Below are positions 9,701 to 37,140 of a DNA stretch of 64,000 bases, one piece after another. The translations under genes and the position numbers were made by a program. Every line of letters starts with the position of its first letter. The first letter of the stretch is position 1. The stretch is from Laetmonice hystrix (taxonomy: Eukaryota): contig OZ249436.1 in assembly GCA_965235115.1 (NCBI GenBank), forward strand, positions 13,146,001-13,210,000, read 5' to 3'. The notes beneath the pieces are model-generated. The model was not told the origin of the DNA, did not search any database, and was given only the letters and a program-made list of their open reading frames with translations.

Positions 9701-10436
9701 GCTTGGGGTGCTCAAGCACCCCCTCAATTTGCCCAATTGTTTTTTGTGCGCTTGTTGACCACAACCCCCTCTTAATTTGAGGCGCCTACGACCTTGGTTA
9801 TTTCCAGCATCCCCCTGGGTCCAGTTTCTGGGTACGCCACTGGTATAGGCCTATAAGTTAGTATATGTACACGTGTATTCGATTTCTGTATGGTTGTTTG
9901 ATCATTCTGAAGTATTCCTTTCTTATGTATCTATTTTCAAGAATTCGACTCTTTGCTACTTCTGCAACGTTTCGAACTGCCAGACAGTGACGGGTCAAAC
10001 ACAAAAATGTCAAACGACCAAGGACATCTGCATGGTAAGTCGGGGGTGGGTGCATGCATGGTTACTGAATGACTGAATAAATTCAAAACTTAGAGACATC
10101 TATATATGCTTATTTATCGGTCAAGATCATCGTTTTGGCTTATAAAGTCGTCATTCTAACGATGTTTGCTAGATGTACTACTATTTCGACAAATCGGAGA
10201 AGTACGGCCGAGGTTGCCGACGAGACGACATGCCGTGTAAGGCAGACACCGACTACGTGTGGGCGGGCTCCACGTGTGGCATGTGTTGTACTGGTGACCT
10301 GTGTAATCATGACGACATCGAGACACATGTGACCAATTGTAACAATTTCCGCGGGGGTTTCACAAGTCTACACACGGCCGCGCTCCGCCCACTGCTGCTC
10401 GTGGCTGCCTGGATCCTGCCGGGTCTGACGATATAG
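786..10436 (+). CDS. Mucin-like Ser/Thr-repeat protein with C-terminal Ly6/uPAR (LU) domain and putative GPI-anchor signal (~465 aa, 7 exons)
   Basis: Phase-compatible GT-AG exons: 786-807 (tentative first exon, MTNLIID), 6630-6809, 7078-7109, 7974-8678, 9323-9424, 9942-10034, 10173-10436. The N-terminus is weakly hydrophobic (KAVILTTFVSLSMG) and is followed by a long T/S-rich region. Then comes LCYFCNVSNC...KC...DICM|MYY...RGC...PC...CGMCCTGDLCN, the CCxxxxCN LU signature, and a hydrophobic tail (AALRPLLLVAAWILPGLTI*). AATAAA at ~10741. The first exon is the least certain part. Confidence 0.8.
1161..1896. mobile_element. MITE-like element with ~25-bp terminal inverted repeats and a nested CAGGG-ended element (1193-1703)
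   Basis: agcggcggcacagaagcgttgatag at 1161 and ctatcaacgcttctgtgcggccgct ending 1896 (1 mismatch). Inner pair cagggtgcccatca / tgctgggtaccctg. Confidence 0.6.
2746..3260. mobile_element. Non-autonomous DNA transposon with TTAA target duplication (Kolobok-like)
   Basis: ttaa|AGGGGCAT...ATGCCCCT|ttaa; no internal ORF. Confidence 0.6.
4186..5496. mobile_element. Cluster of nested or duplicated GC-rich palindromic MITEs
   Basis: TIR pair aggcgggattcacaaaac / gttttgtgaatcccgcct (e.g. ~4676-4812). Direct duplication of ~4364-4590 at ~4820-5131. Second TIR family aagccgctttcacatgc / gcatgtgaaagcggctt (~5205-5386). Confidence 0.75.
5598..5727. repeat. Near-perfect ~130-bp hairpin or foldback
   Basis: tttgtctactcatacttacgaaagcccagaaggctcattc... 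pairs with ...gaatgagccttctgggctttcgaaagtatgagtagacaaa around a core of gaaatt repeats. Confidence 0.85.
7986..8660 (+). repeat. Coding minisatellite, 72-bp unit (24 aa, GQDLTTTGYSSTDGPTSTADSTxx), ~9 copies
   Basis: The unit recurs every 72 nt (ggtcaggac at 8010, ggtgaggac at 8082, and so on), in frame within the large exon of the mucin-LU gene. Confidence 0.95.
9688..9842. mobile_element. Dispersed short repeat (cagtggcg...cgccactg family); partial copy, second copy at 51592-51757
   Basis: gtgcttggggtgctcaagcaccc...caatttgccca...gcgcctacgac...ttggttatttccagca...cagtttctgggt.cgccactg is shared with the 51.6-kb copy. Confidence 0.7.
9942..10436 (+). other. LU/three-finger domain plus GPI-signal exons of the mucin-LU gene
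   Basis: Exons 9942-10034 and 10173-10436 together encode 12 Cys, including CxxC at the start and CxxCCxxxxCN, followed by a hydrophobic C-terminus. Confidence 0.85.
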
Positions 10437-13408
10437 GGATCCACCAGGTGAAAACAGGAGAAATATTGGCGCAGCTACCGCCTGACAACGTTCAAGATTG
10501 TATCGATGCTGATCCTAGTTCATCATTGAGCATGGAGAATGCCTTTTTATAGGCGCTATAATGCCCTACTGTGATAGCCATATATGTTCTGATTTTGACA
10601 AATAGATTTTGTTCAAAGGCCCATAAAACACCGGGCATAAAACACTTTAACAGTTGGACCTGCTCCTGGCATGCGACCAGTGTCTAGCTATTCATAAAGG
10701 GCCAAATTTGTTTTCATACAAGATTTGTGTTTTACTTCAAAATAAAGATCCGTCCATTATTAGGGTAAGGTCATTGGAGGCGCATTTTCTTCTTTCGAAT
10801 TTACATTTGATCGAATGTTAAGTATTTGTTTCAACAATTTAAGTGTTCCCAGATCTTATCTTTGTTCCGAATTTGAATCAGGAATGAAACTTCTTCAGGG
10901 GACAAAATGCGTTGTAACACTAGCTTCGGATTGTTTCATGGAGAATTTAGGTGGGAAACAACCATGACCACCTCATCATTGCTTGTCAGTGAAGTCTAGC
11001 AAGAAAGTTACACATTTCGTTTAATTACAAAATGCCTCACTAAGAACCAACTCTAATTGCAGCATAAGTGCAAAATAACTTTATATATATGTGGATAGCA
11101 AAAATATATATTGTTTTATGTAATTGTTTAACGTTGTACTATATGGCACGGAGCAACTGGCCATTGTATTTTGGCATCTTATTGAAACCTCACACTATTA
11201 GTCGGTATATTCTTTATCATAATGGTATATCCCAAACTGTTACAACACGTGTATCCCACTGTTATCATAATGGTATATCTATAGCTGTTACAACACGTGT
11301 ATCCCACTGTTATCAGGAGGTAACAAGACATGAAATCTGGAAAAGAGCAAGGAAGCTGTGATATTTTCTACGTAAGCTATTTTTCTATATAAGGCGTTGC
11401 TTTATAATTCAAAAATAGGCAAGTCTGGTTAGGATGATGAACTGCGCTTTATCGTGTTTGCGTGTGTTTAAGGGAAAAGCCAAGTTGAGTATGTGCGATT
11501 TTTTTGGGTATAAAGGCAACATTAATATCCTCGTTATCATTGAGTGTACAACCCTCAATCAAGTTTAGAGCTGTCCAGTCCGTAACATTATGTTTTTAGT
11601 CTTTCAATTTCGATTTCGACTGAAATGTCCACAGATTTGGGTCCCTCTACATTATTGCTCCTAAAAGCGGGTGTGTGCGGTTAAAAAGTATAGCCATGAG
11701 ACTACAATATAATGATGTCCCCGCTGGATGATAACAGACATATGCCTCAGCTGTATACCTGTGGTTCTCAGCCCAGCAGATAGTATAGAGTTGTATGTGA
11801 CAGTTTATCTCTCTGTTACACACCGATTGTTTTCATGTGTTTACATGCAGGATGACATTGTTTTTCCAAGCTGCAGCAGTAGGCTATTTTATCTAGATTA
11901 CGACTATTGGCCGACAATATATTTGTTATAACCTTCAGAGCAGAAAGTGTAGACAGGCTGCAAATGAAACAGTCAAGCTTGAAAAGTCTAGGTAGGGTTA
12001 AATCTCAGAAGATGAGACCAGACTGCTCAGGTTTAAAATCTTGACTGGGTCTAGTTTTTCTATGCATGGCTCATTTGGAAGATTCTTTCATTTCGATACT
12101 AGGCTAGTACCACATTAAATGCCATACTGGCAACTTTGGATTTAAAATACCTAATTTCCTCTGCGGATGTGCGCAAATTTACAATAAATAAATGGAAAAA
12201 AGTAGATGAATAAAATGCAGACATTATTTGAATTGGCCTCCATTTAACAGAAGATTCTCATGGTTGGAAAACGCGAAGAGGCGTGGAAACCAGAGGGGAA
12301 GTAGACAGGGTTACGAATGAACTATCCAAACACAATCAACAGTGACCAGCATTGGCCTCCCTGACCAACAAAAACACTCGCTTCCGTCCAGTTGTGGCTG
12401 TCTGTGTGAAATAACGTACATACATCCATACATACGGGGAGGGATTGGAAACATATAACGACGGACCGAGCCTGGAGTCAACTCATCCGTCAATCATGCC
12501 GTATGACTATCACTATGACAGTCCTCCAAGGCAGACGTAGATCATGACCCCCCTTCATGACACCCAAGAGGATCAGAGAGGCAGACCCGAGCACAATGGG
12601 TGATTTTAAAGTTGGTGTTAACAGGTGGTGTTTACACTAACAGTAACACTAACAAGCTCTGGGACACCAGAAATAAATTGTCCAGTGTTAACATCAGGTG
12701 TCCGTGTGATCTACACTCCGTGGAAGACTGAGTGCAGGTGTTAACACACAACTGACACTTCAAGTTGGTTACCTTCTGAATACGGATTCCTAACACGGGT
12801 CTGACACTAACACCAGTATAACACTCACACCATACACCATGTTAGTGTTAACACCAACACCCGTAGTAGTAATCCACACTGCATGCCAGAAAGGACACCA
12901 TCATTGGGGAAAATGATCAAGATCTGGGGAAAATGATCAAGATCTCGTTAAAATCAGAGTTCGATTCCCAAATTATGACCGGTAATATTTCATGCTTTCA
13001 ACTACACATGAGCATCCATGCATAATCTGGGGCCTTCCCATAATGCGTCAGACCTTCTGTCAGAAGTGAACTGGTTCCTGTTGCAGTTTCAAAAATATTA
13101 AGTGTCTCAATTTCATATGTGCCACTCTCATAATAATCAGCAACATACAAATCAACTGAAAACAGACAAACGTAGGCCTACCACCAGGGGTGATTTTCAA
13201 GTTGGTGTATGCTAACAGTAACCAGAATCCCTGATACCTCACCCGATTCACAACTTAAAATGTGATTCAGACAAGAGAGAGAAACTAAATAAAGGAAGTA
13301 GGTGTAATTATAAACGAAATACTAATTAATAATTTCAAAAGCAGATGATAAAAACAGTTGTAGTCCGTCTCATATCTGTTGCAATATAAGGACAAATAAT
13401 TACATGAC

Positions 13409-13470
13409 ACACCGGGAATCGAACCATCAACCTTAGGATCAACACACAACATGCTAGACCATGCTAACAG
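13409..13470 (-). pseudogene. tRNA-derived fragment (SINE head or tRNA pseudogene)
   Basis: The minus strand reads gcatggtctagcatg...ggttgatGGTTCGATTCCcggt, with A-box-like and B-box motifs; I could not fold a complete cloverleaf. Confidence 0.4.
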
Positions 13471-13541
13471 CAACGGTCAGAGAATCCAGCAGACAGATGC
13501 CACTTGTGGTCCGAACATGACGCAACATGGCAGGGGCGGAT

Positions 13542-13823
13542 CCAGGGGTGGGTTGCACTAACGGTCCTACGGGTTAGGACTGAATTTAGGACCAGTCCTA
13601 CATTCAACAGGGGCAAATATCCACAATTTAAATGTAATTCGTCAACTTTTATATCTCAAGGGCTATTCAAACTCAGATAGATATGAAGTGCTTGGGGGGC
13701 ATGGATCTTTACTTTCCACCAAATTTCGTGGGGTTTAAGTTATCATGGGCGATATACCACTCAGTAGGACTGGTCCTAAATTCAGTCCTAACCCGTAGGA
13801 CCGTTAGTGCAACCCGCCCCTGG
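13542..13823. mobile_element. MITE with ~60-bp near-perfect TIRs nested in the hAT-like element
   Basis: gggttgcactaacggtcctacgggttaggactgaatttaggaccagtcctac / gtaggactggtcctaaattcagtcctaacccgtaggaccgttagtgcaaccc. Confidence 0.85.
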
Positions 13824-17700: not shown

Positions 17701-17913
17701 TTACCAACCACATGTCAAAAAATAACCGCTCATTGTTCCCAATGCAATCCCACCTCCCTCGGGGACTGCTGCCACCTGGCGGTACTTGAAGACACTAAGT
17801 TCACTGTGTGTCTTGCCGGGATGATCTCCACAAACTCAAACTGTGTCAGCTTTAGTCATGAAATCCGCGAGAATTCCGTGTGATCCATGTCTTGGCTGAG
17901 GTGTTCCTTGCTA

Positions 17914-18804
17914 TCAGCACACCGAATCATCCCGATAATCATCTACAACATCTTCCTCCACCTCTTCCCCGTCCTCCTCCTCGCCTGAAGCCATCTGTAC
18001 TCCATTCACCGTGGTTCCCTTGGCCATCGGTACGTCCAGCGCGCGGTGGATCGATTCGATAGTTTTCATGTTGACGTAGTATGCTAGGTTCACTTTTGGA
18101 ATCCGAGCCCTCATTTCTTCCAGGCAGGCGTACGCCTGAATCAATTAACATCAATATGAATGACCATCCTACTAACACAATTCTAGGAGTTTCAGAAATG
18201 CCAATGACCTCTTGGAAATTAGTTACACCTTGTTTTTTGAGGAAAAAAGTCAGAGAAACAAAATATTCCGAATTTATGTTGCTGAGTAGTGGGAGGTACA
18301 CAAGTAGCATCCTATACTTACTGCCTTCCACTTTTCCCGCTTGGCAAAGTGCTCCACAATGAATCCATAAACATCTCCGATACGGACAGCATGGTCCAGG
18401 TTTGGCTCTTCGAGCAGGACCTGGCACTGCTTTATTGCCTCATCAGAATTTTCTTCATACGTTCTGTGAAAAATGATGCTTTGATTACTACTGGGGGTTA
18501 AGCATTTATCAAATTGAAAAACTGCTACTCAATGGGTATTCAGTGCAGACTGAGAAATGGAAGTAATAATTTAAGCATGTCGTCATTATCTACCTGCGTG
18601 CTGTAACAAATTTCTTGATGAGCGTCATTTTCTGCTTGAGTGCTCCCAGCTTTTCTTCTTGCAGTGACTGGTTCTTCATCTTGGCCTTGGCCATACATTT
18701 GTAAGCCTCGTTTAGAGCCCCAAGTGCCTTGTCATAGTTTTGGTATTCATCTATTTCCACCTGTTAAGTTTTCATCAAATTTCAGTCAGTGCTGATTTTT
18801 CTAT

Positions 18805-18874
<70 letters not shown>

Positions 18875-18904
18875 GTAATAGTAATAATAGTAATAATAGT
18901 AATA

Positions 18905-18958
<54 letters not shown>

Positions 18959-21900
18959 TGATTTATTGTAAAGTATCAGGACATACCTGAACGCTATTTC
19001 TAATGTGTTTTTATTTAATTAATAATAATCACAATAAAATCCCATACCTGACCACAAGCATCATAGAATCCTGCCAGAAGCTCAAGAGCTCGTCCCTTGG
19101 TATAGAAGCTGATAATATTCTTCATGATCTCGGGATCTTTACGCCAGTCTAATGACTGTAAGTAGTTCGCTGCCATCACATAGATCTCCTTCTGCCTTGA
19201 GACTCCAGCGAAGAACACGATCTTCTCTGTGTCTCCAGACTTCAACAGGGCCTTCATGGCCTGTAAATGTACATCAGTCACCAGCTTAAAACATTGCCAA
19301 CCACCTGCCCCTTGAGGCAGCTAACCCAGCCAAGCCTTTTTAACATGACCGATGCGAACACTTCTAGACTCACCTTGACTTTGTTCCCAGCCTGTGTGTA
19401 TTTCTTGGTGGCCAGATGGTACTGTCTCTGCTGCATACACACCTCAGCGATACCCTCAAGGATCTTGTTACGTTCTTCAGCTTCATTCTCATTCATTTCC
19501 TTTGGTGGTGTTAGCTTCTCAACTAACTCTTCGGTCATGGGCACGTGTTGCTCCATACACAACTTGAGAGCCTCCCAATACTGGTGGAGAGGAGCAGAGA
19601 GTTCACACAATCTATCCCTACAAATACCTACTAGTTTTTGCAATTTTCATGAAACTAATTATAATATTGGGTAAAACACGCATCATCTCCACAGGTGTAG
19701 TCCATGAGGAAGCAGATGATGCTTTATGTCCAAAAATTACACTGAACAAACCTTCTTGGCTGCAGCCAGGAGATCAACAGCCCTATCAAACTGACTGTTC
19801 TCAATGAAGAAGTCTGCACAGCGCTGCAGTAAATGAGGATCAGCTTTCTCATCAAGATCCTCTGAGATCATCTGGAGTGCCCCAAACTGTTTGGATCTGA
19901 AGGCCAAGTCCAGTGCCTTCGAGAAATTGCCTGCCTGTAGATTAAATATTACAATTACTAACACTAAACCACCTTAAATAAGGTAAGGAATTTCGACCAG
20001 TTGTTGTTCCAATTCACAACCATCATATCACACCAAGTTTTAAATTTAGAGCTGAGGTATTCCTAGGTCTGACCTTGTGGTAGAGCATGACAGCTTTGTC
20101 CTGAGAGCCAGGCCTGAACTCGTAGTACCGAGCTGCCTCCATCATACTTTCTGGACGAGCCAGTAGTGCCAGGTTCATCAGCTGGTCCTCGTTACCATGT
20201 TCCTACAACAATAGCCACAACAAATTCAAACAATAAAAATGTGTATCACTGCATGCCTCTGGCTAATCTGCCTGGGTCATCCAGTCCAATATTAGTGGCA
20301 ACTTGTAAAGGAGGAAAAAAGGCAATATCGATGATACTAGATAAAAAAAAGTCTCAGCATACAGTTTCATTTGTCACACTGTAATAGTATTCAGAAGGGA
20401 GGGGGATGACTTACCCTACAAAGTCTGATGGCATTGCCATAAGCCTGGGCTCGTGTAAAGAAATGGATTGCTTCCTTGATCATGTCACTGTTCTCATACT
20501 GTCGTGCCAAATGATAACATGCTGCCCGGTCTCCTGTCTCATTACAGATATCTGCTGCCTACATAACACACGAGACAATACAGCATTTTAAATACTCCAA
20601 TTCTAGCCACACTCCAGGGGGAATTTAATCTAATATGACTCCTACCAGAATGCTGCAGAAAAACATATATCAATGTTACTCCCCCTTGTAGATGCCATGT
20701 TAGTATACAAGAAGGATTTAAAAAAATACCTTTTCAAAGTTTCCACAGTAGCAGTATACCCTGACCAGTGACAGGTAGTCTTGTGAGAGCTCATAATTAA
20801 CCAGTGCCGTGTCCATCTCTCCTGTACTTTCCATGTATTGAGCCCACCACTTTAGTAAAGCCCTGAAACCAAAAATGAAACCCTTTGTAACATTTCACTA
20901 TCTGGAAAATAAAAATAAAGGAAAAGCAACTATACTGTGTTAACATGAAAAGAATATTTGGTTCTGAACACTTACATGTCCTTTTTCTTTGTTATGTAGC
21001 CCTCAAGTGCCTGAGGCTCATCAAACAACATTCTGGGAACCTCAAATCTGTACGTCTCTGATTTCTCATAGCTAGGGGAAAACAAAATAAACAATTTTTA
21101 GTAAACATTCATCGATGGCAGAGGGAATCAAAATTGAAAAAATTGGCACTTAAATACAGGTGCTTAACTAAGAGAGTTACGGTGTCACTTACTTGGGAAT
21201 AGCTCCATTGATATCTCCCTTGGCCTCAAGGTGCTTGCCATAATTATAATAAGTAGTACGTAGATGGACCCTATCAAACATCTCTGCAGTCTCCATTGCC
21301 TGGTAAATGACCATAGTGAACAACTGCATTAAGGTACACAATTATTATGTCTTTTATTCATCTGGTTTACCCCAACAAAAATAACATTCAATTGAATTTA
21401 TAAAGTAAAATTTGTTGCATACCTAGTTACCAACATGTCTTCAATTTAGGATTCCTTTAATGTAGACAAAAAACAATGGCCAATCGCTGGTGATTTGTTA
21501 GTGAAGGGAGGAGCAGGGTTAGAAACTGACCTTCCCCCATTGACCGCTCGTTTGATAATAGTCGTTTAGCAAGTCATAACGTTTGCAGTTCTTCAGCAAT
21601 CTTTCAGCATCATCCTGTAACATTAGCAGCAAGTGTCATACTTCTGTCATACTCTATCTGTACTGACTTATATCACTGCCCAGTTCTCATCCAATAGCAG
21701 ATACCATGTCATTATGCAGTTATGGTTTTTCTTTATGACTACATACCAGGTTTCTGGGTAAGTTGTGTTGTTGAAGCATCCACCCTACCTTAAGCCCAAG
21801 GTGAATGGCCAGCACAGCCACCCGAGCATCCAGTTCTGGTTCCTTCATGGCCTCACGTAAGGCCTTCGCTCCACGGGCATGCCCCATGTTACCCAGGCAT

Positions 21901-24900
21901 ACCATGGCGACATCAAGTCGGCGAGTCTTCACACACATCTTTGCCATGTTCTCCCATACTGTCTCACTAGAACAGATTTTAAAGGGATAACAGGAATTAT
22001 AACGAAAATCAAATAATTTAATTGTCTTGACTTTTTGCCCTGCTGAAGTGGGCAATAATTTCGGAAAAAATGCATGCCATACCTCATTCATTCTCTGACC
22101 AATATCATATGGTGCTGTAGCTCAACAATGACATTATATCTTTTACATTAAAAAATAAAATACATTGTACCTTTTGATTAGTTTAATAGCTTTGAAAGCT
22201 TCATCTAGGTTGCCAATAGTAAGGTAGTAGCTAAAGCTCATCATGGCATCCCGTGCATTCTTGTCAGCATTCTCCAGCCCAATGAAGTCTCGCATGGTGC
22301 GGCGGTTCACGAAGCCAGTCTCAACCGGAGTGTTCTGCCCTTTATTCTCTCCCTCCTGAGACTGCTGCGGAACCTCCTCCTTGGTCTCCTCGGACTGAGA
22401 CAAGACAGCACCTCATGTAGCAAACAGCCTAATATTTAATAACCTTAGATCATGGCCATTGATGCAAGTAAGTCTTTATAGATTTTTATGAAAACGAAGT
22501 TTGACTTTTATGAAGAACTTAGAAGCATAGAGCATGTGCCCGATCAAATTTATAATTATGGTTGCTTGATGTGATTAGCTCTGTCTGACCTTTCTCATGA
22601 AGTAGTAGTATGGCACTTGGAGTCCGATGAGACGGTTGTGGACCTGAGCCATGGGGAAGCTGTCCTGAATGAGGATACCATTTTCTGGGGTCACAAACAG
22701 GGACACGATCATCAGCTCCACCTGTAATGACATACACATGTTAAATACTGTCTGGCAGCACAAACTCTGCATGCATATCATCCCAGTTCCAGATTTTAAC
22801 ATTCCTACAGATTACTTACTGAGTTACTCTTTGTACAGACTGACTTTGAACAATGGGTACCCAGAAACCAATCCACTTGATTTAGACAGCTCATGTTACA
22901 GCATACCTGATCATCTATAGAGCCCTTTGTAGCATTTTTGTAGCTAAGTGTACTTGAAGACTTGGTTTGGTCCGTTGGCATGAGGCGGGCCTCACATATG
23001 AGGAGTTTACTCTCAGTCGTGTCCCACTGGTGTGAGATGGGGTGACGTCCGGCTATATCCTTGGCTGCCTGGTTCTTTCCTCTGAATAAAACAAACCATG
23101 TTTGCTGCAATAGCGGTTCTATCTCACATGGCCAGTTGGCTTCTTGGGGACTTGAGCCAGAAAGAGACAAGCCCTCTAGTTAATATCAAACGATTTTTTT
23201 CTGAATAATTGTAAAAAAGTATACTATCTTCAAAATATAAATTGTCTATGGGAGATCCTTAAAATGCAAAAGAAAAATATTGAATATTGGTTTATACTAA
23301 CTTATCTAGGTCAGATGCATCATTTTCTAGCTCGGTTCCTTGCACCATGTACTCATCCTGTTCACCTCGGCCAGTCTCAAAGTTGAAGAACTGCACTGTG
23401 TCCAGCTCCACATCCCATAGGTAGAGCTTGGGATCAGGGGCTCCACTTGGCTGACAGGGGTCGACAATTATCATGATGATTATCATTACGGATATAGCTC
23501 TCAATCATATACAACAATGTACAGTGCAAACAACCATCCTCAACAGTTACCACACACCTTAAAAGATGATCAGTACATGATCAACTTCAAAGTGCTTCTG
23601 AGACTATCATAACTGGAAAGACTAATTAAGTGCATGCATTAAACACCACAATAAATAACCCCAATATATTGTTTGGATTTTCTCACCTTGTTGACAATGA
23701 TACTGACTTTGCTACCACTGCAATTACAGCGAGCAGACACCAAAACTCCAAAATCTGGAAGCACATCTGCTATGTTCTTAGGTGAACTGTGCTGTTTGGC
23801 TTCTCTATAAATTATAAAAAGAGTTGAATAAATGAATGGATGATAAATCAGAATGTACCAACCCCAGGTGTACTGTTATGCAAATACAGTCGAACATGGA
23901 TATAACGATTTTCTTAGGATCCCGATTACAAACTAACCCTAAAAATTGCTGTATTTTCTTTTACTCTATACATGTATGCCAGAACATATCAATTAGCTTT
24001 TTCTAATTAATCATGTTGGGAATTCCACAAAAAATACAGTAATAAGACTTGTAAAATGGAAAGTGTAGACACTGAACACTTGATGTCGGGAGATATCATT
24101 ATATATTATTAACGAAAATGCATGGAAAATGTGACTTTGGGAATGTGAAATTTCTCATGATTTAAGTGGAATTTCGTTATAAGCATTTGGCTATAAGCAT
24201 GATTTATTAAAGGCAAATATAATGTCGCAGAAAAAGGGAATCAGACAAGCTTGCATTACAAGTGGGTTTTCATTATAAGCTGAACTGTTACAGCTGGGTT
24301 CAACTGTATACAATTTCCATTTTAGTACACTGAAATGCCTTGGTACAAATAGATGAAAAAATATTAAGACAGTTCAATGAAAGCACCTAAGAATTTTTAA
24401 TGAGTGAGACTATTTCAGTAATTCAGTATACATCGTCTTACCTCCTGGACAGATCATACATCTTGATAACACCTATGGAGGATCCAATCACCATCAAGTG
24501 GCCACATATCTCCATGAAAGAAGGATCTCCTTCATTCTCTGAGAAATTCAGCAGCTGCTTGACAGTTCCCTGGGCAATCAAACAAATCATACTTTGTCAT
24601 TATGATAAAAACGTCAGCCGTCTGGTCAACTGAAAGGTTAGACCTACCCTTCTGTACAGATCATTTTGTATGTCGTTCCCTAATTAATCAACAGCTTCTT
24701 TAAGTTGTCAGTCAAAGTAATTGGGGCATTGCTGCAAGCCATTTATCTGATATGCCTTTTCAGTTAAGTGAATGAAAATTATGGCTTGGTAATTTACCTG
24801 GAAGGTTCTGACCTGAACCTTGCCTGGTTCCAGAGTGTAGACGTTCTGCTCATAAATACAAATCTGACCAGATTCTGTACTAAATGAACCTGGAGAAGAA

Positions 24901-27900
24901 GTTTGACAAAACAAGGTTGTAGGCCACAGCTTAACTTCAAATGTAAAGCCATGTTAGTGTTAGTTGTTACATCATGTCAAATGGAGGTAACAGTTTTATA
25001 TGTAAAAATTGTTTAAACAGACTATTCAGGGCTCGAAAAAACCTATGTCTGATCGTCCTAGACGACTAGAAGTAAAATTTAAGGTTTGTGTAGTATGTCT
25101 TAGTTACTACTTGCCTGAAGGGCAAGTTCGGGCAAGTAAAACTGGTAGATCTTTTTCGAGCCCTGCTAGGACTCTTTATGATCTGCACTGTTCTTTTATA
25201 ACAACATCATCAACAAGTTTGGTAATACATGTTCATTCGCCTTGTAGCACCTTGTGGTAAACCACAGTAAAGGGTTCCTCACCTGCCACTCGGATAGATA
25301 TGCCATCCTGTACGATCTCATATACAATGGCTTTCTTCCCATCCATGACAGCTATTGCATCCTGCCAGAGTGCATATATCACAATATCACAATATCACAA
25401 TATCACAAAAAAAGTGGACCAATTCCAGAAACCTCCATCCATGCCAATAATATTTTCTAAACTATAATGCAAACAGCCTTTATCATACATTGATTTGACT
25501 AATAATATCTTATTATTTATTTTTTGAATGCATTTTGGTGTGGTAAAATGCAAATTCCATGAATAAATTTAAACTGCAAAAACAATGTGTTTTTCAGTTT
25601 CCTACTGAAGTTACCATTATTTCAGATAATACCTGGCGATGAATTACACAATTTCAAAATACAAATGTAGTTTAACTTACCTTTGTGTTATAGATGTTTT
25701 TAATTTGAATGTCTGTCTTGACATCATGATGTTTTGATGTCGCAAACAGATCAACAGACAACTGTGTGGGGCTGGTTTGCACAACTGCCACCTGGTGTCA
25801 AAAGGTGTAATTGTTACATTCCAAGATCCTCCAAAACAGAGAAACTATGCAAATTATCAAATATTCAAGCAAGGGAAAAATCACAACATTCTAAGTTGGA
25901 GTTTATTTTGGCCTGTCTCCTACTCATCTACTCTGGTTCAGGGACCACTCACCTGTTCTTTGTAACTGGCACTCATGACTTGTTCATCAAGTATGTACAC
26001 ATTGTCCACTGTATTTACTGCCAGTAAATTTTTTGTGGAACCCCACTGCAAGTGACAAAAAAAGTAACAAAAACATTTTATCTCAAACCATACCGAAATT
26101 TAATAAACCTTGCAGTAATAGTAACATATTTCAAAATTTCAGGGAGATTTCAATTTCAACGTGCAATCACTGATAGAGTGACCTGACTGTCATTGTAAAG
26201 CAGAACCCCTGCAGTAGGTTTTTAATCCTGCTGAGCATAGGAGACAAATAGTCACTCACGGTGAGGTCAGAGATAGGCCCTTCCACTGTGGATGGTGGCT
26301 GAAGTTTCCATCTGTCTTCTGGCTCCACTTTGTTAGATGGCGATGCTGATACCAATGGTGAGAACTGCCACATGGCCACATGACCCTGACCGGTACCCCC
26401 AGCAAGGACTCCTGCAATAAATTAGTCTTAATTAGAGACAAGCAACAAAATTCCAAGCCCCAGCATGTTGGCCTGGCCTGCTCTACACAGGCTATTTATA
26501 AAGCATGATCTACCACATATTCCCTCTCACACGTTGGCACCTATGTATACATTTTTAAATTAAACTTACCTTTGTTGGCACAATATGATATACAAGTGAT
26601 GAACTCGTTTACATCATATCCTGGCTGACCATCCAGATTCAACACATAGTTCTCTTCCTGCTCAAGATCCCACATTCTAAAGAGATATCAGGAACACTTA
26701 CTAGTATACAATCACATTCTAATTCAATCAATCAAAATAATCTTACTGTAAATCATTATGCTACAAACTATCGAAAACTGATAACAGATATCATGAACAC
26801 TTACTGGTATACAATCTCATTCTAATTCAATCAATCAAAATATCTTACTGTAAATCATTATGCTACAAACTATCGAAAACTGATAACAGATATCATAAAC
26901 ACTTACTGGTATACAATTACATTCTAATTCAATCAATCAAAATATCTTACTGTAAATCATTATGCTACAAACTATCAAAAATTGAGTAGATTTAGCTTTG
27001 TAACTACTATGAGAAGAAAATTCAAGATGATGTTATAAATAGCAAATGATGTCTTCTAATATTGTACATGTACTTGGCCTTACATCCTACAGTCTGAACT
27101 TGACATGAACAATATCGTTGAAACTGAATCTTCAGTTATAATAAATAACAACATGTGCTCATAATAATTCCTTTCAAAATAGAGCTCACGTAAACGTCAT
27201 AGTAAGAGAAATTATCCATAAATACATTACACTGTTATTTCCCTAGTTACATAGAATATACTTCCTTGAGAACATACCTTACAATACTTTCACCTGTTGC
27301 TGTTGCCAGAACACCTTTACTAGCCCAAACCATGCAAGGATTCTGAGATTTCCCGCTCAACTTGACCTGAGATATGAGGAAGTAGGCTATATGGTCTTAG
27401 GTTGGCACCACAGAGCAAAAGTAGTAAAAATGATAAACTTTGATGAGTTTCAGTTGCCATCAGTTACACTACAATCAACAATTCTTGTACCAAAATACAT
27501 AATGTTATAATGTTACCGTAAGTACTTTTAACAATCCTGCATGGTTATCTCATATGACAGGTAACTATCTTCACAGTTGTTCATTCAATCATTCTTACTA
27601 CTTACCTTCAGCATCTCCCTAGTGTCACCTTCTGGACCAACTATATGTTGACTTAGCATCATTGTGGTTGTTACCGTAACAAGAACATTGCGCTCATCAT
27701 AGTACAACAAGGTACGAACAGGGCCATCAGCAATGAACACCTGAACCAACTTCATGTTCTCATTCAGATAGTACACTCCACCTTCAAATAGAAAACATTT
27801 TTACATTTACAAGGATACGTTCAAACCCTTCAACAATATAATAACCGATTTACTGCTACCACCATAATCCAGCAGTCTAAATGACACAATTATCAAAAAT

Positions 27901-29481
27901 TACAATTACCAGTGACATTAGTATGTACACAGTGATTAGTATAGGCTTCATGTGGTCGTCTATTTTTATCTTCCCAAGATCTTGACTTTTTCCCTGAAAA
28001 CATTACCATTAAATTATGGCATACATTTTGTCAAAGCTCATAGCTTTGACCAAATTCAATTCTCACCATTCTTTCCTCCAAGGAAAAAACATGTAGCTTC
28101 TGCTGGACCCAGAGATGGCATGGACATGTTGCCCTTTCCTTTCCTCCAGCTGAACATGTCAAGGGCACTTTCATCACCACTGACTGCAGCTCGAGCCAAA
28201 CTTGCAATATCACTGAGGTAAAAAACCACAGTGAAACTCAGTGAGAAGCTTGAGTATATGACACTTGTATCAATGATCAATACCATACTTGTGTCTGAAA
28301 ACAGAACTTACACACAACTCTTATGCTGCTCTTTCTACTTTTGATTCAGTACCCTTTAGAGGACTTACTGAGCTGGATCCATAGGCGCTGGAGGTCTTAG
28401 GACAAGTGTACTAAGGGGTTCGTTTAAATGGTGTTGGCACAGGGCACTTTGCTGCAACCGCCCCCTTGAATCTGCCTTCCACATCGCGATGACACCAGTC
28501 TATGTAAACACAATATAAATCACATATGGCTCTAACCATAATGTCATTTTGTTGAGGCAGTCAAAATAAATTGCTGGATAAGGTTCAAAGACTACAATAT
28601 AATCCCTAATAAAACCTTGATTTTAAGTTTACTGATCGCAATTTGATGTAGAGTTCCCCATAGTGGAGAATTATTATAGATCCTTCCTCAGACAAGCTGG
28701 GAAAGTTTTTACTCACTGAATCTCCTGTGAATAGTCGTGTGCCATTAGATGTCCAGTGCAGAACCTTGATATCAGCTTTGTGCAAGTGGCCACACTCATA
28801 CATTTCATGATCATGTTCATTCCAGACAGTCACTTCACCACTCTCCCAACCTACAGCTACTATCTTTTTGACTGGATGCCACTGGATAACCATGGGGGGA
28901 GTGGACCGCTGAATTTTACAGTCCTGTACTTGTTCTCCCTGAAACAGTTATTAAAGTAATGCTAATATGTCATATTCTTACTTCTAGATTTGACTTCAAT
29001 AGCTTTTTTTTTAACATGCATTATGCAGACTCTAGATGATATTTAAAGTGTCTCGTACCATTCTCTGCAAATATCCATACAGACTCTATACAGAATCAGC
29101 AATATGAGTGGGTTGAACCTAAATTGAAAGCTATATCAGGGCTTTCAAAATAAGCCAGCAGCCAGCGGGATCCTCATCTACAAGGGTATCCTGTGCCAGC
29201 TACTTTAAGCGAAATTCCAGACATGGATTGCAGTTGAGGATGACCACAAAAAATTGATAGTGCATGCTACTTCAGCCTAATCCTTGCCTACTCAAACACA
29301 ATATACTGAACACATGGTTTTACAATTGACAACTAACCTCATCCATGTATAGATTGACATTTCCTCCAGCATGATCACTGAATGAGCCAACAGCTAACAA
29401 CTTGTGAATTTTGTGCCACTGCAAACGTGTGTTGGCACCTCCTGACGGACCTTGGATTTTGTGGTCAAAATACACAGCCAT
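17914..29481 (-). CDS. IFT140: Intraflagellar transport protein 140 (IFT-A core; WD40 + TPR), ~1490 aa, 31 coding exons
   Basis: Start [12 protein letters not shown]...[13 protein letters not shown] (ATG at 29481). Recognisable IFT140 segments: [107 protein letters not shown], and an acidic C-terminus. Exons (minus): 29481-29338, 28938-28717, 28499-28369, 28212-28067, 27781-27606, 27366-27278, 26676-26570, 26411-26260, 26045-25953, 25791-25681, 25361-25283, 24889-24798, 24569-24442, 23804-23687, 23450-23302, 23081-22907, 22721-22590, 22394-22171, 21966-21789, 21614-21531, 21299-21193, 21071-20976, 20862-20730, 20558-20415, 20202-20074, 19934-19752, 19580-19374, 19260-19048, 18760-18594, 18463-18322, 18135-17914. 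Total 4473 nt, a multiple of 3. Confidence 0.96.
18805..18955. repeat. (AAT)n microsatellite in an IFT140 intron
   Basis: Long aat run with interspersed agt triplets. Confidence 0.95.
23887..24306. mobile_element. Degenerate Tc1/mariner(pogo)-like MITE in an IFT140 intron
   Basis: ta|CAGTCGAAC...GTTCAACTG|ta termini with TA flanks. Confidence 0.55.
25027..25165. mobile_element. Short MITE with 14-bp TIR in an IFT140 intron
   Basis: cagggctcgaaaaa / tttttcgagccctg. Confidence 0.65.
26683..26985. repeat. Tandem repeat, ~102-bp unit, ~3 copies, intronic
   Basis: Units agatatca..aacacttact.gtatacaat...ctacaaactatc start at 26683, 26786 and 26888. Confidence 0.9.
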
Positions 29482-29832
29482 TTTCTACCTAAAATGGTAA
29501 AATATAATAATCTGGTCATAAACATAAAACAAGGTTCAAAGTTGGTCAAAGTATAATGTCAGTTGGCAACTGTAATCTTAAAGACATGAAGAGACCTTGT
29601 TGAATGATTCACAAAGCTTAAAAAAAGACATCACTGGAAATGAATGTGAATGTATTTAATTTTATTATGGATGCCTAACCTACCATATAGGCTCTAATCT
29701 AGCCGAATAGATTATAAACTGTGGTAGTAATAAACTAGTCTGAACTAAAGATAGTAGACTCTAGTAAAGTGAGAAATACCCCAGCCAAAGCCACAAAGGC
29801 AAATGCAACATTGATTTACATTAGTCTAGACT

Positions 29833-30473
29833 AAAGGTCGGTTTATAGTCCGTCGACCGACCATCGCCCGACCATCGGTCAAAGTTCACGTAGACTTAAA
29901 GCCCAGTTTATAGTCCCTCAACTGACCATCGCTGAAGGTTTATAGTTGCAGTGATCCGGCCGTTGGCCGACTGATCGCTGAGAGTTAAGTCTACGTGAAC
30001 TTTGACTGATGGTCGGCCGACGGACTATAAACCGGCCTTAAAGCGAGGGTCTCGTCCTTCAGCATTGTGTGATAAGCGGTCCACCCTAACGGTCGATGTG
30101 CTATTTATAGATGTCAGTTCCTATGGCTATGCTACAGCATAGGATGGACGTGAAATAGGTCACTAGGCCGAGGTGGTTGCGAGCATGGTCTAACAGACGA
30201 GACTGCTGCTTTAACTCTGACTCAGCGATCGGTCGGCCGACGGCCGGATCGCTGCAACAATAATTAAGGCTGGTTTATAGTCCGTCGGCCGACCATCAGC
30301 CGACCATCGCTCGACGTTAGGTCAAAGTTCACATAGGTTTAACTCTCAGCGATCGGTCGGCCGATGGCGCTGAACTATAAACGTCGAGCGATGGTCGGCC
30401 GATGGACTATAAGTATAAACCGGCTTTTAAACGTTCAGCGATGGTCGGCCGACAGACTATAAACTGGGCTTAA
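29833..30473. mobile_element. Stack of nested palindromic MITEs, including a TTAA-flanked insert (30042-30210)
   Basis: Multiple copies of ggtttatagtccgtcggccgaccatc and its reverse complement; inner ttaa|agcgagggtctcgtc...gacgagactgctgct|ttaa. Confidence 0.75.
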
Positions 30474-30844
30474 GTCTTACTCTTAGCATGGCCCATCCTA
30501 TTCCTAGGCCGGGTAGGCCCATCCCCAGCCCAGGCCATACCCATGCATGGCCATGCCCATGCCATGGGCCATGGCATGGATGGAGGGTGGGGCTTCAGCG
30601 ATTCTTCAAAGAAAACCATTCCAATTAAGTTTACCTAGGTGTTTACCTAATCCAGTGAACGTTCTACTACTGAGGGTTGTCGAGTCTTGACTTTATCTTT
30701 ATGCCTACTACTGCCACTGACAGTGACACAGTGACAGACAGGGTCCAGCTCCCAGGTCAGTGCCAGTCAGTCAGTGACTGATCGAGTGCAGTGCCGCCAG
30801 CCAACTTGTTGTTTTGAGTCCTAGGATACCGTCGAGCTCAAATA

Positions 30845-30858
30845 GTTTCCGTGACAAT
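30845..30858 (-). promoter_or_regulatory. Candidate RFX X-box for IFT140
   Basis: The minus strand reads ATTGTCACGGAAAC, one mismatch from the RTHNYYWTRRNRAC X-box consensus; it lies in the 5' region of a ciliary gene. Confidence 0.5.
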
Positions 30859-30998
30859 TTCGACAAGACGGTGTATTGTCTTTTCTCCAATAGTAAAGTA
30901 TATACTACACAAGTACAATACACTTTTCCGAAGACCTATAGGCTATATCCGTAGTAAATCACATGTTTAGAGGAAAAACAGCAACGGGCCGGGTAGAC

Positions 30999-31006
30999 GT
31001 AAACAA
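30999..31006 (+). promoter_or_regulatory. Candidate forkhead (FoxJ1-type) site in the IFT140/DECR2 divergent promoter
   Basis: GTAAACAA; a short motif that could occur by chance. Confidence 0.3.
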
Positions 31007-31258
31007 CACTCCACCATCTTGTGTGCAGTCAGGAATTCCGAAGTACCCGGATGCACTTCTACACTTGGCCAATGATGTCGTTAAGTTGTCATGCTGAAAT
31101 TACAGAGTAAATAAGAAGCTGAATAGCCTAAATGATGAATCTTTAGATCTTTGTGCAGAACCCTAGACTCTATAGTCTTTTTCTTTCGGTTACTAGGCCT
31201 AGTAGAATAACGTAAAGTGATATCCTGTGGATGTCACATGACCTGAACTTTGTCCAAA

Positions 31259-31726
31259 ATGGCGGCGTCGGCCTTGCATCGGGAGGAGTGTATTCCAAAC
31301 TTCAAATATATTTTTCAGGCAGATTTATTCAGGTGAAAATGAAAATGGCATTTTAAGTAAACTGAATGCTATAGTCTTGTTTCAACCATGCATTAAAGGT
31401 AGCATGACGATATACCGTTAACTTCTGTAGCCACGTCAAATCTTGTGCATTATCACTCGGGGTTCAAAATCAAAGCGGCCGACGAGAACGTCGCGTCGGG
31501 AACCCTGGCCACACAGCCGCAGGCCGACGGGCTGACGGGCCTCCCGCTGTGCACTGCCGACGGGATCGACATATCCGCCCACCGGATGACACGAACCAGG
31601 GGCAGATTCAGGATTTTGGAAAGGGGGTGGGGTGGAAAGAGGGTGTGGGGTCTGAATGGTGAACTGTGCGATGCGCAAAGTATCATTACATTAGTATGGG
31701 TGAAAGCCATTTTTTTCAATGGGTGT

Positions 31727-31757
<31 letters not shown>

Positions 31758-34235
31758 GATAGTATGTAATCTATTTTAGACCTGAGATAGGGGGGTTTAA
31801 TTCCAACCATAATATTAGTCATTCATTTATCCTCTTTTTTTGAGGAGAGGGGGGTCTGGAAACCCCTGGCTACACCGGTGGGGGGCCCCCTCCCTGGATC
31901 TTCCCCTGCAGACGGCTTGGCCAGCCATGTGCTGCGTATGCTGGTTGGTCTGTATAGACCTTTATTATATATGTACTAGGCCAGTATAACTTCATGCACC
32001 TAAGCCTCTAAGAAGTTTTATTGTGCAAGAGTAGCGGTTATAATTTTAAAAAAATGAAATAAACATATTGCTATTAGGTAAGTTGCCTAATAATAATGCT
32101 GAAAATAATTATTTTTGTTCCTACCAGGGGCAAGGTTGCTTTCATCACAGGAGGTGGTTCAGGCATTGGTTTTACTATTGCTGAAGTGTTCCTGAGGTAA
32201 GAAAATTACCCAACTTAAACATGGGATCAAGTTAATCTTGTGACCAGTCTGTTCACTTCTGTATGATAAACTATTGCAGATAATCTAGCTAGTATGGTAC
32301 ACTCTTTATATGTGTACAATTGAAAATGATCACAAAGCTATCCCTTTTTATTGTTTTACACTTCTTTACAAGTAAAGAGAAGAAATAGATCTTTTATCCA
32401 AATTTATATTCTTGGATCACAGAGTAGCTAACAGGTAGCTAAGGGCCTTTTTTTACTCTGGAGTATTTTACTTTTTTAGACATGGTTGTTCAGTTGCCAT
32501 TGCCAGTCGTAATGTGGATAGACTAGAGGCAGCAGCTGCTACACTTGAACAGGTCACAGGAGGGAAATGTTTACCAGTCAAAATGGATGTGAGAAAGGTA
32601 TGACTTTTAACAGTATGAGGTAGAGTTTAGTTTTTCCCAGTAGAGTGCAAACATGACTAAAAAGTTCTATTACACTGTTTACACCACAAATAATGAATTG
32701 CCTCATAGTACAATGTTAAAAAAGTAAAATCTGTTAAGGGCACAACATTGTCCATATTCCATTATGCTAAAACAGCTGCTAAAAACTGCTTGCCCCGTTG
32801 ATTATGGAACCCATGAGAGTTGGCATGATCACCATGCAGGAATGATGCTTTTATCTGTCCCAGCCAGAAGAAATCATGAGAGCTGTACAGACAGTGTTAG
32901 CCCACTATAAGAAAGTCGACATATTGGTGAACGGTAAGTATTAATCAGTATACACAGCTGTTTCTATTAGAATGCATATTTACAAGACAGTGATTTCTAG
33001 TTAATGCTAGTTGTGAATTGATGTGGTTGAGCGAGCCTTCATTGTTACTATTTACATCCAGGTGCTGCTGGAAATTTCCTCTGCCCTGTTGACAGTCTAT
33101 CCTTCAATGCCTTTAGAACTGTGATTGAAATTGATGCAATGGGAACATTTAACACAAGCAAAATCATCTTTGAAAAATGTTTCAAGGTGAGTATGATTTG
33201 TATTGAATTATTTGTTAAAAAATAATAGAAATTAAATTGTTTTTGTACTCCTTTTTTATATAAACAATTAGCGTGGTCGAAAGTTGCTTTTCGTCTTTCA
33301 TCTGATGTTGTGTTTATTGCCTGGCTCTCCAAGGACTGTGGTGGAGTTATTCTCAATATCACAGCTACCTTGCATTACCGAGGCACAGCACTGCAAGCAC
33401 ATGCTGGATCTGCAAAAGCAGCCATAGGTAACTTTGTATAAGAAAAAAAGTTTTCATAACTTTGCTTTACATAACTTTACACATCGTAAATGCAAATTTC
33501 ATCTTTACTTTAATATGCATCACAGAAGACAATACCAGCTAGTCTCGGTGCTCAGCCTGGTTTTGTGGTTTTTGTATACATATATTCTTTTTCCTAAATA
33601 TGTTGATTTTTTTTTCGATGGTTCTTCTGTTCCCATGCCCATATGTATTTCTTTCAGATGCACTGACGAAGCACATGGCTGTAGAATGGGGATCAAAAGG
33701 AGTTCGTGTGGTAGGAATAGCCCCTGGCCCCATTGCTGACACAGAAGGAATTCGAAGACTAGGTAGGTCATGGCACCAAGTAGACATGAGTGATTGACAA
33801 AAGGGTTCAATAACTGTGAAGGGGATGTATGGTAGATTTGATTCCCATCTCGTGATGCAACTAGATTTATAAATAGAAAAAGGTCATATATTTATTGTAG
33901 CATCCCATAATAAACTCTTACATGTTGTACGGCAGGCTCATTGTATTGTGACTAGACAATGAATATCCAAGTCCATAACCCGGAATCACAATGGATGATG
34001 ACCTGTTTCAGCTGGGGACCTGCTTCCTCTGGCCTTGCCCTTCATCCCCGTAGGCCGACTGGGTACGAGGGGGGACATCGCCAGCATTGCTCTCTTTGTG
34101 TGCAGTGATGGTGCTGGCTTCATATCGGGGGAGACGATTGTCGCAGACGGCGGAGCCTGGCTCTCCAGCCCAAACACTGCCGACCTTCGCAAACACAAGC
34201 TACATGGAAGCACCACGCCAACGAGCAAAATGTGA
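31259..34235 (+). CDS. DECR2: Peroxisomal 2,4-dienoyl-CoA reductase (SDR family), 292 aa, 8 exons
   Basis: Exons 31259-31332, 32128-32196, 32480-32597, 32864-32933, 33062-33186, 33334-33427, 33658-33762, 34012-34235 (879 nt). Motifs: [102 protein letters not shown]-terminal SKM is a PTS1 variant. Confidence 0.95.
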
Positions 34236-36534
34236 AGAATGGTGGCAAATGAGACTTTGGAACCATAATTCTTTTGTAGCTTTGGCAAATACGAAAGATG
34301 GAAAGACACCATCTCACCTTTGTAGAATATGACTGTTTTAAGAGAGGTTTTTGAGAAGAAGTCCCTGTTCTATAACCGACAGCTAGATGTTGGTGGGAAA
34401 CTGGGATGTGTGCTACGGTAATGTAATATGTGCGCGAATGAAACAGATTATAATGTCGTTAAACTGTCTCCCAAATAATTGATAAGAATGAAGTGACTTC
34501 GAGATGAGTTGATTGATGTACCCGGGTAGGTTTGTAAGTATTTGATGGTGCTATATAATTGTAGAATGAACCGATGTGAGTTTCTCAACCTTGGAGTTAA
34601 CCTTACTATAGGTTTCTAATTCGTGTGGCTTCATTCTTCGATCGGTACATCGCTTATAATAACTTAAGAATTTGGTCGAAAGTAAAGATCCATAGCCCTG
34701 ACACTACAATAGCCTACACTTTCATGATGCATGTGACACTGCCCCGTCTGTGTTGCAGTCTGGTACTGCCCTGATGGTCTCAAAAGGTTTCACCGGTAGT
34801 GGTCCTCGTGGTCTGTGCAGAGAGTGTGCATATGCATATAGGTAATGTTACGTAAGATCTATTGTTCTGCGTACAATTTAAGTGCAGAGCTTCATTAAAA
34901 AATCGCTTTCCTACATGAATATATTCTGATTTCTTTTTTTACTGACTTTAAAAATTATTTTTCCTGTATTTTATTTTATATATTTGATCTGACATTCAAT
35001 TGCTCAGAGACCTCGCGCTGTTACCTCCACGCAAAACTATTAATTCAAAATATAAAGGTTTTCCAACTGAGGTAAGAATTCCGGAGGTTGATCTCGGTGA
35101 CCACCCCATGGGGACACAAGAAAAGTCAACTCACTGGGGTACGTGTTCGTCTCTGCCTGTTTGTCCCGTGACTGGTTCGCTTTACATGATACCCTGGGCT
35201 AACCTTCCGAATTCTACCTCTACAGGAATGGAGTCTCATTCGCCAAGCCATTTCTGGCATATATTACAAGCTACGGTGTGCTACATACATGAAATATTCT
35301 AAGCGCCACTTGGCAGTCACGGTAGCACGTAAGCACAAGGAAATGATTCCTGAATGTGCATTGGGGATTCCAAGAGGCAAGCATAGAAACACAGCAATGA
35401 CTTTACTCTATACCGAATTTTGGGGCTGACAGAGGGAAAGGGTAGCTGTAAATTCATTTATTAAGCACAATCGTAAAGCACGTATATTATTATATTATTA
35501 TGGTAGGCACCAATTGGAATCGATGGCTACGATTCCGTTACGCCTCAATCGACTTTATTTCGACATTTGTCGGCTGCACGATTGCCTTGTTACAGAGAGC
35601 GCTTTCCATATTTACAGGAGATTGCATAGTTTACAGTCTCGCATACATACACGAGTAGAACGTCTAAATCCTATAAACTGACCTGTAGCGATTATTCATT
35701 CTTTGTGACATTCGATAAGCACAGAAGGCTGGGTACGCAAGTACCGATACTATCTAGAGTGTACGGACACTTTTAAACAAATTTAGCAACGCAAAAGAAC
35801 AAGTAAAAGTATTTAGAAACCACGAGTATCAGCAAACGGCTGACATTCATGTGTAACGTCATCTTGAGCTGTTCTTCCTTATGGCCATAATGTAGGAAGA
35901 ACCTCAGATCGTGTGTTTGCATAGGCCCACGATGCGAAGTAGTGAATCGTCCTGTCATATTTCTAAAATCGAGGGTCGGTGAGTGGACAAAGGCTAAGAC
36001 GACTTTTGGCTTTAAATCTGATCGGGAGTCGTACATCTAGAGGAAAAGTGAATAAAGACACAAATCCCCGACCCGCATCAATCTAGCTTGTCATTCAATA
36101 ATTCGAGAAAGGCGCATTCGGTTCGGTCTAAAGGAGAAACGGCTGATTTGTTCTGTGACTGTAAAAAAAACCATTCAACCCTACAGTGATTTTTTGGTGG
36201 GGGGGGGGGGGGGGGGGGGCAGCTAAGACCTGTTCCAAGAGCATTCCAAAGTTGTGAACGGGAAGTGAGGCCTCCCCACCATATCAAGGGTCCTGACCAT
36301 TTGTGAACTCCGAGGGGGGGGGGCGCCCCTATCAAAACACCCATTGCCTTCCTATCGCAAACCCCCCTGTCCCCAGCCTGTCCGCAGCCTGTCCGCACAT
36401 GATCAACGCCCTTCCCGCCTCCCTCCAACACCAATTTCATTGATCATTGCCCTCGGACTAGGTCCGATGCCCCTCGCCTATTACAAGCTCATACCGAAGC
36501 AGAAGGCCTGATAGTAGCAGATGGGAAGAATTAA

Positions 36535-37140
36535 TTAAGGCCAAGGGTATGCAGAATATAGTGAGAGAAACAACAATACAATATTTCCCAGAATGGTGTC
36601 CGTGAGCTTAAGGCTACCACTTTTACAGACTTGTTTCTCCTCCGCCAGGAGACTTCGTGCCTGCTCCCTGCGATGTTGCTGAAACTGGTGGCCATTGCAG
36701 GCATGTTTGGCACAGCACTGGACACAGTGGCGCCGTCTGTTTTCTCTGGTTGTGCATGACTCCTCAAACGTGGCGCACTGCGACTTCCCGCGGCAACCAC
36801 GCATGTATCTGAACTCCCCCCACGAATCCTCCGTCGCTGATATCTAAAGGAGACAAAATGAAGACGGATATAAATATACGCATTTGTCTGAGGTACGGTT
36901 GTTTTGCATTGGATTTCATCTTAATCAAACACGAATTCACCAAAAGGCATTAAAATACGTGATTAGGTAGAAATTGTGACATGCTATTGGTCCCCTGGAT
37001 AGAGGCATGGTCACGGCTTATTACGCCGTGATTATACTTACAAAACAGACTTGTGACGACAAACAAGGTTTGGTCTGAGAGTAGGTCAGTTGGCGTTGGT
37101 CACAGTCAGTCGTTCGTGTACAGGTGTAACATCTCAATAC
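36535..37140 (-). other. LU/three-finger domain plus GPI-signal exons of the cadherin-LU gene
   Basis: VLRCYTCTRTTDCDQRQLTYSQTKPCLSSQVCF|ISATEDSWGEFRYMRGCRGKSQCATFEESCTTRENRRRHCVQCCAKHACN...ILGNIVLLFLSLYSAYPWP*. Confidence 0.85.

Follow-up and report, generated by a model that had tools for sequence, protein, structure and literature searches.

A cadherin-LU gene with a predicted lipid anchor and its mucin-LU neighbour in Laetmonice hystrix

Does a shared exon cassette at the ends of two neighbouring genes mean that the genes are duplicates of one another? The question is raised by a 64,000-nucleotide stretch of Laetmonice hystrix DNA (assembly GCA_965235115.1, contig OZ249436.1, positions 13,146,001 to 13,210,000 of the forward strand; called the window below, with its first letter as position 1). 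Here gene A on the plus strand and gene B on the minus strand point toward each other with IFT140 and a DECR2-like gene between them, an arrangement that the initial annotation had described correctly. It went on to read the two genes as a local family in which one module, an LU domain with a glycosylphosphatidylinositol (GPI) anchor, was duplicated and joined by phase-0 exon shuffling to different extracellular modules, giving a modular surface-display system. Different ectodomains, mucin in A and cadherin in B, do stand on LU-GPI ends in two intact multi-exon genes. The span proposed for the pair, 9942..37140, takes in the LU exons and misses the N-terminal modules (gene A begins at 6312 and gene B at 51940). 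On closer analysis the paired-family claim is weak, and what the locus offers is a cadherin-LU-GPI gene that is real, conserved and testable. Gene B is probably an old conserved chimaera in which the first two extracellular cadherin (EC) repeats of a Cr-2 cadherin, EC1-EC2, were joined to an LU domain with 12 cysteines, a stalk and a GPI signal.

The models of both genes were built from splice signals, and their exon-intron structure is thus a prediction; all 15 introns of the two genes are GT-AG. Gene B (51940-36535, minus strand) has 10 exons encoding 365 amino acids with no internal stop, laid out as a signal peptide, two cadherin repeats (exons 2-8), an LU domain (exons 9-10), a stalk and a predicted GPI signal. 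Exon 1 (51883..51940) encodes the signal peptide, with another in-frame ATG 27 nucleotides upstream. It is followed by exon 2 (50695..50763), assigned to the first strand of EC1 with its calcium site-0 asparagine, and by exon 3 (48286..48437), assigned to the body of EC1 with the motifs DxDxE and LDRE. Exons 4 (41766-41716) and 5 (40993-40904) lie within 40904..41766 and together supply the end of EC1 and a canonical DxNDN linker between EC1 and EC2. Exons 6 (39690-39604) and 7 (39050-38943) form the body of EC2, and exon 8 (38557..38631, 75 nucleotides) its last strand, ending in a phase-0 donor that leads to the LU cassette. Exon 9 (37042..37140, 99 nucleotides) covers Cys1 to Cys5, the first half of the LU domain, and exon 10 (36535..36843) covers the second half, with 7 cysteines, together with the conserved stalk, the GPI-type tail and the stop. 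This tail is hydrophobic and uncharged, and the GPI signal was called by heuristic. The stalk of about 25 residues after the CN of the LU motif was modelled as a helix with low confidence. No further exon with a cadherin motif was found in the 64-kb window.

In the PDB, the solved cadherin that comes first for exon 3 and for exon 7 is CDH23, matched in register. CDH23 accounts for all three matches of exon 3 (residues 29-73, best E 0.2) and, as EC1-2, for the first 9 of the 14 matches of exon 7 (residues 152-185, E 0.004), with CDHR2 next; exon 6 matches residues 123-148 of CDH23 EC1-2 chains in a non-discriminating way. Pfam cadherin matches were obtained for exons 6 and 7 below threshold. 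The site-0 calcium motifs of CDH23 and PCDH24 are given as 1N, 32DXDXD36 and 80XDX (PMC8691648; this and all other papers are cited for those portions of their text that were available). By motif, EC1 of gene B carries a corresponding set (Asn22, DxDxE from 53 and ATDG at 104), and its Asn-to-DxD spacing of 31 is the one given for PCDH24 (PMC8691648). Intron positions agree as well. Splice-variant names place donors at c.145, c.288, c.336 and c.429 of human CDH23 (PMC6826400) and at c.297, c.438 and c.783 (PMC8182786) and c.525 (PMC9140808) of human CDHR1. Three independent exon alignments of gene B with CDH23 share a single offset of 23 residues, at which gene B donors 2, 3 and 5 fall exactly at c.145 (phase 1), c.288 and c.429 in the same phases, and a gene B donor lies within one codon of c.336. 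The gene B donor intervals of 141 and 87 nucleotides are also those separating c.297, c.438 and c.525 of CDHR1. Taken together, the in-register matches, the site-0 motifs and the shared introns argue that the repeats derive from the N-terminal end of a gene for a Cr-2 cadherin, and by these sequence features they are classed as EC1-EC2 of the CDH23/CDHR1/CDHR2 type. An alignment of four cadherin exons (A2) was poor and was not used.

The join between cadherin and LU exons recurs in another animal. A DNA pattern for the cysteine spacing of the gene B type retrieved 97 metagenome loci, 31 of them with a stop-free core, and 6 of these 31 were judged to be real LU domains. In a tblastn comparison with the 97 loci, the gene B model matched one, L042, and the gene A model none. 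L042 (5501 nucleotides) contains six exons that correspond, in the same order, to gene B exons 5-10; they measure 90, 84, 117, 75, 99 and 372 nucleotides, are all in phase 0 and remain open over 278 amino acids. Identities to the gene B exons are 13/30, 10/28, 9/36, 11/24, 15/33 and 24/101 (24-46%), each above 1000 of 1000 shuffles. The two exons that meet at the cadherin-LU join measure 75 and 99 nucleotides in one animal as in the other, and the equivalent of exon 7 has a Pfam cadherin match (E 0.0014) and CDH23 as its first match in the PDB. The six matching exons, with their order and phases, indicate that the fusion is old and has been kept in a second, distant animal. A HMMER search with exon 10 against 1.84 billion representatives returned two further relatives, P0001 and P0002, which are unnamed, last-exon-sized, 40% and 39% identical, and share the same stalk; the stalk of L042 has an acidic insertion.

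Several observations weigh against this account of gene B. The E-values of single exons against the PDB are weak, exon 2 has no match there, exon 5 resembles many cadherins, and the top matches of exon 6 include unrelated designed repeats. L042 ends before EC1, and EC1, site 0 and the count of two repeats are thus seen in this window only. Word-based protein searches with exon 10 against longer proteins (57 candidates), with alignment A1 (4538) and with exon 3 (44) did not find a full-length homologue of gene B, which is weak evidence; a peptide pattern from A1 gave 171 stretches in metagenome contigs, none of them confirmed, and A1 compared with PDB sequences gave one irrelevant match. The non-canonical base of EC2 (LNYN, DVMES) was rejected as proof of truncation because full-length PCDH24 also has SYN there. 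Finally, the splicing of gene B is inferred from the genomic sequence: a search for RNA runs containing the stretch found none, which tells for neither side, and three read runs cover the introns evenly and contain no splice joints. This last point, together with introns of up to 6.5 kb that are filled with repeats, is what could be said for an artefact in which a small LU gene, separate in origin, would be preceded through chance or misassembly by what is left of the 5' part of a long cadherin gene. Such an accident is very improbable given that the exon chain and its phases recur in L042, where the exons on the two sides of the join also have unchanged lengths. In L. hystrix itself, one contig from an independent read assembly (36994-38665) spans exons 8 and 9, although the reads behind it come from one sample that is possibly the source of the assembly. 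Moreover, the LU part has no signal exon of its own, and a phase-0 first exon that is strongly hydrophobic was not found in intron 8.

Human Cr-2 members have many EC repeats plus a cytoplasmic tail. Gene B resembles CDH23, CDHR1 and CDHR2/PCDH24 in its site-0 motifs, its EC1-2 linker and the positions and phases of its introns, but it has two repeats, an LU domain and a GPI signal in place of many repeats, a transmembrane helix and a cytoplasmic tail; by sequence, it is derived from the Cr-2 family and is not a member of it. The vertebrate GPI-anchored cadherin CDH13 (T-cadherin) has five classical-type repeats and lacks an LU domain. Gene B likewise has cadherin repeats on a predicted GPI anchor and no cytoplasmic tail, whereas its repeats are two, of Cr-2 type, and accompanied by LU. 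Since gene B comes from the Cr-2 branch, its GPI-anchored form appears to have arisen independently of CDH13. To our knowledge, GPI-anchored cadherins are known only from vertebrates. A literature search that left most subscription papers outside it found neither a cadherin-LU protein nor an invertebrate GPI-anchored cadherin, and the available parts of PMC13409769 and PMC9410279 held nothing relevant; an automatic annotation of such a cadherin-LU protein may exist. Thus the cadherin domain, the LU domain and the GPI-anchored cadherin are known, and the presence of cadherin and LU in one protein appears to be new.

Membership of both LU domains in the Ly6/uPAR class is indicated by their cysteines and motifs. 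The class is defined by about 10 cysteines, an LxCxxC start and a CCxxxxCN end, and a two-exon LU domain with CCxxxxCN and a GPI signal in the last exon is the family norm (PMC4839075). Gene A has 11 cysteines and gene B 12, both have LxCxxC and CCxxxxCN, and in both the domain occupies the last two exons with a GPI-type signal, called by heuristic, in the last. The single LU exons had no match in Pfam, and a predicted model was poor (predicted local distance difference test score, pLDDT, 49). A stand-in with the same cysteine spacing, locus L079, gave Pfam QVR at E 0.14 and a low-confidence model (pLDDT 46) whose top Foldseek rows were GPIHBP1 and LYPD6B (E 0.16-0.26; VIA Z 4.0, root-mean-square deviation 3.3, 57 aligned). 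Among named Atlas clusters, the nearest are LYPD6B and LYPD1 at 0.86-0.87, which is below 0.9 and makes them leads only. Compared with LYPD6, LYPD6B, LYPD1/Lynx2 and Lystar5, GPI-anchored Ly6/uPAR proteins with extra disulfides, A and B both have large N-terminal modules; gene B also differs in its conserved stalk after CN, and gene A in its 11 core cysteines.

Gene A (6312-10436, plus strand) has 7 exons encoding 466 amino acids without an internal stop, in the order split signal peptide, mucin region, LU domain and GPI-type tail. Exon 1 (6312..6336) holds the start of the signal peptide and a phase-1 donor. The mucin exons (6630-6809, 7078-7109, 7974-8678 and 9323-9424) encode an acidic region of 324 residues that is 49% Ser+Thr, and exon 7974-8678 contains a 72-bp tandem repeat in 9.4 copies. 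A Pfam GAGE match on the mucin exon was below cut-off and was put down to composition. The first LU exon (9942..10034), with Cys1 to Cys5, is in phase 0 at both ends, and the second (10173..10436) has 6 cysteines, an extra cysteine, the GPI-type tail and the stop. By tail and omega heuristics, this C-terminal tail is hydrophobic and uncharged. The number of core cysteines (window 10173-10320) is odd, at 11, and the spare one could pair with the cysteine at CN+11. As a mucin-LU-GPI coat protein gene A is unremarkable, and it has a starfish precedent, the 'mucin-5B-like' XP_033630875.1 (338 amino acids, LU 220-307, GPI; PMC11595613 Table S1), which to judge by its name is built like gene A.

How close, then, are A and B? 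The details of the shared cassette hold up: in both genes it comprises two exons, is entered in phase 0 and is interrupted one residue past Cys5 by a second phase-0 intron, and both have RGC, CxxCCxxxxCN, one further cysteine and a hydrophobic tail. The intron layout is thus common to the two, but their likeness had been overstated, as the domains have 11 and 12 cysteines in different spacing. The further cysteine in particular lies at CN+11 in A and at CN+23 in B, and it was rejected as a shared trait; none of 12 homologues of the gene B type has a cysteine among the 27 residues that follow CN. When the 64-kb window was scanned in six frames for CCxxxxCN, three matches appeared, two of which are the LU exons of A and B and the third of which is inside low-complexity DNA.

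A model in which one LU-GPI cassette was duplicated locally, its copies gained their ectodomains by phase-0 exon shuffling, and A and B are sisters has somewhat less than an even chance. In its favour, the genes are neighbours with both intron positions in common, and gene A scores above shuffles that keep the cysteines fixed when compared with the gene B relatives P0001 (p 0.002), P0002 (p 0.007) and L042 (p 0.005 and <0.001). Moreover, the two best Z values of A are to rows of the gene B type, and a His at CN+7 occurs in A and in four of four such rows and in none of five other LU rows, a pattern noticed after the fact. On the other hand, A and B themselves align at 24% identity, with 10 of the 20 identities being cysteines, and cysteine-fixed shuffles reach their score in 8% of cases for the whole LU domain, 12% for the first exon and 17% for the second half. 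Their DNA shares nothing beyond one 12-mer, their cysteine numbers and stalks differ, and A also reaches Z of about 3 against L079 and L006, which are not of the gene B type. An LU tree of 10 rows was saturated, with one of seven inner branches supported. Nor is the intron after Cys5 peculiar to the pair. Two-exon LU domains and CCxxxxCN are generic, and of the two loci outside the gene B type with visible introns, L006, a multi-LU locus, has the same phase-0 donor one residue after Cys5, whereas L046 has a phase-1 LU entry, a phase-2 internal intron at another place and no such donor. Thus the local duplicated LU-GPI pair of the initial annotation was not borne out, with A-B similarity at the level expected from cysteines alone. 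By sequence, there is no support for a recent local duplication, and the chances are about even that the LU domain of A is an ancient paralogue of that of B. Phase-0 exon shuffling is compatible with the data and is not told apart from fusion of neighbouring genes. As a separate observation, in L006, a multi-LU gene, the repeat unit extends from the position after one Cys5 to the position after the following Cys5; a 300-nucleotide exon at 426-725, in phase 0 at both ends, joins the back half of one LU domain to the front half of its successor.

The idea of modular display survives in a general form. Each of the loci L076, L079 and L090 codes for a long protein of Cys-rich repeats that is closed by an LU-like domain with 12 cysteines and by a hydrophobic tail; they were found with a pattern that selects this cysteine spacing, and so show that the arrangement occurs and not how often. 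L076 also has a Pfam VSP match. In the available text of a starfish survey (PMC11595613), no name among the 48 LU proteins refers to a cadherin. The LU-GPI end under varied ectodomains is thus general and not peculiar to this locus, and nothing shows A and B working as one system. In their own right, L076 (2-10204), L079 (61-5430) and L090 (1-498) are giant Giardia-VSP-like repeat proteins (>3400 and 1789 amino acids) on intron-free contigs.

CDH23-type cadherins form the tip links of hearing and the links between gut microvilli, and their trans partners pair CDH23 with PCDH15 and CDHR2 with CDHR5. In CDH23 and PCDH24 alike, EC1-2 is the part that binds the partner (PMC8691648, PMC10089651). 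In gene B, EC1-EC2 of such a cadherin would have been joined, at the phase-0 intron after EC2, to an LU-stalk-GPI end, and the product may be a short, calcium-stiffened surface molecule of adhesion or recognition. EC1-EC2 is the binding unit and appears to be kept with its calcium sites, so calcium-dependent binding in trans, to a Cr-3-type cadherin or to itself across a narrow gap, would be its most likely activity; given the architecture, we put this at just short of even. The LU domain and stalk would hold EC1-EC2 off the membrane and might bind a neighbour in cis, and without a cytoplasmic tail the protein could not itself be tied to actin.

Two other activities can be set beside trans binding, and each is unlikely. 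Gene B might form no adhesions itself and act as a decoy or sheddable competitor, blocking or trimming the links of full-length Cr-2 and Cr-3 cadherins, as it retains only the binding tip, ends in a GPI-type tail and lacks a cytoplasmic one, and lipases release GPI proteins. Alternatively, LU might be the working part, a receptor or channel modulator like LYPD6 or Lynx that the cadherin pair positions, for example on microvilli or cilia. Exon 9 is indeed among the best conserved relative to L042, the nearest Atlas clusters are of this kind, and starfish Lystar5 modulates nicotinic receptors (PMC9410279); against this, the cadherin exons 5 and 8 are equally conserved, and the Atlas scores stay under their mark. 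Combining trans binding with such a role gives a more elaborate scheme that we regard as similarly doubtful: gene B would be a lipid-anchored 'tip-link tip' with trans binding of the PCDH15/Cad99C type, its LU domain would recruit a receptor or channel in cis, and it would represent a tail-less invertebrate branch of microvillar or mechanosensory links, with gene A as an ancient sister bearing an anti-adhesive mucin on the same LU-GPI base.

With just a CDH23-type binding tip and an LU-GPI base, gene B encodes a protein of a size suited to expression and crystallisation, and it would allow a direct test of whether the EC1-EC2 handshake predates the vertebrates and can function without a cytoskeletal tail. 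It also represents a clean, datable new adhesion gene made from two ancient families, with the donor introns still in place.

Some features of the sequence around and between the two genes remain to be described. When contigs were compared with gene B (window 36592-36620), four of the seven coding differences listed altered a residue, three of these in the GPI-signal region; one changes a candidate omega Ser to Asn, which is also a permitted omega residue. Contig depth at 46500-50100, a stretch that includes gene B exon 3, is higher than at 35100-38700 by a factor of about 1.5 in all three read runs, which may reflect homozygosity or a collapsed duplicate. Between A and B, IFT140 (17917..29481, minus strand, low end approximate, ATG at 29481) was recognised by its Pfam IFT140 domains. 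The gene at 31259..34235 on the plus strand, read by eye, encodes a short-chain reductase that we take to be DECR2-like. These two genes stand head to head (29481-31259) with about 1.8 kb between them and probably share one promoter. Beyond gene B, a multi-exon gene at 58903-56129 (minus strand) encodes a secreted protein with a signal peptide, short helical exons and a long final exon made up of tandem repeats rich in Gly, Pro and Arg, with units of 21-33 bp; this final exon had no Pfam match. Farther along, exons at 61480-62840 (minus strand), also read by eye, resemble those of what is presumably a PDZ-LIM/Zasp-type protein.

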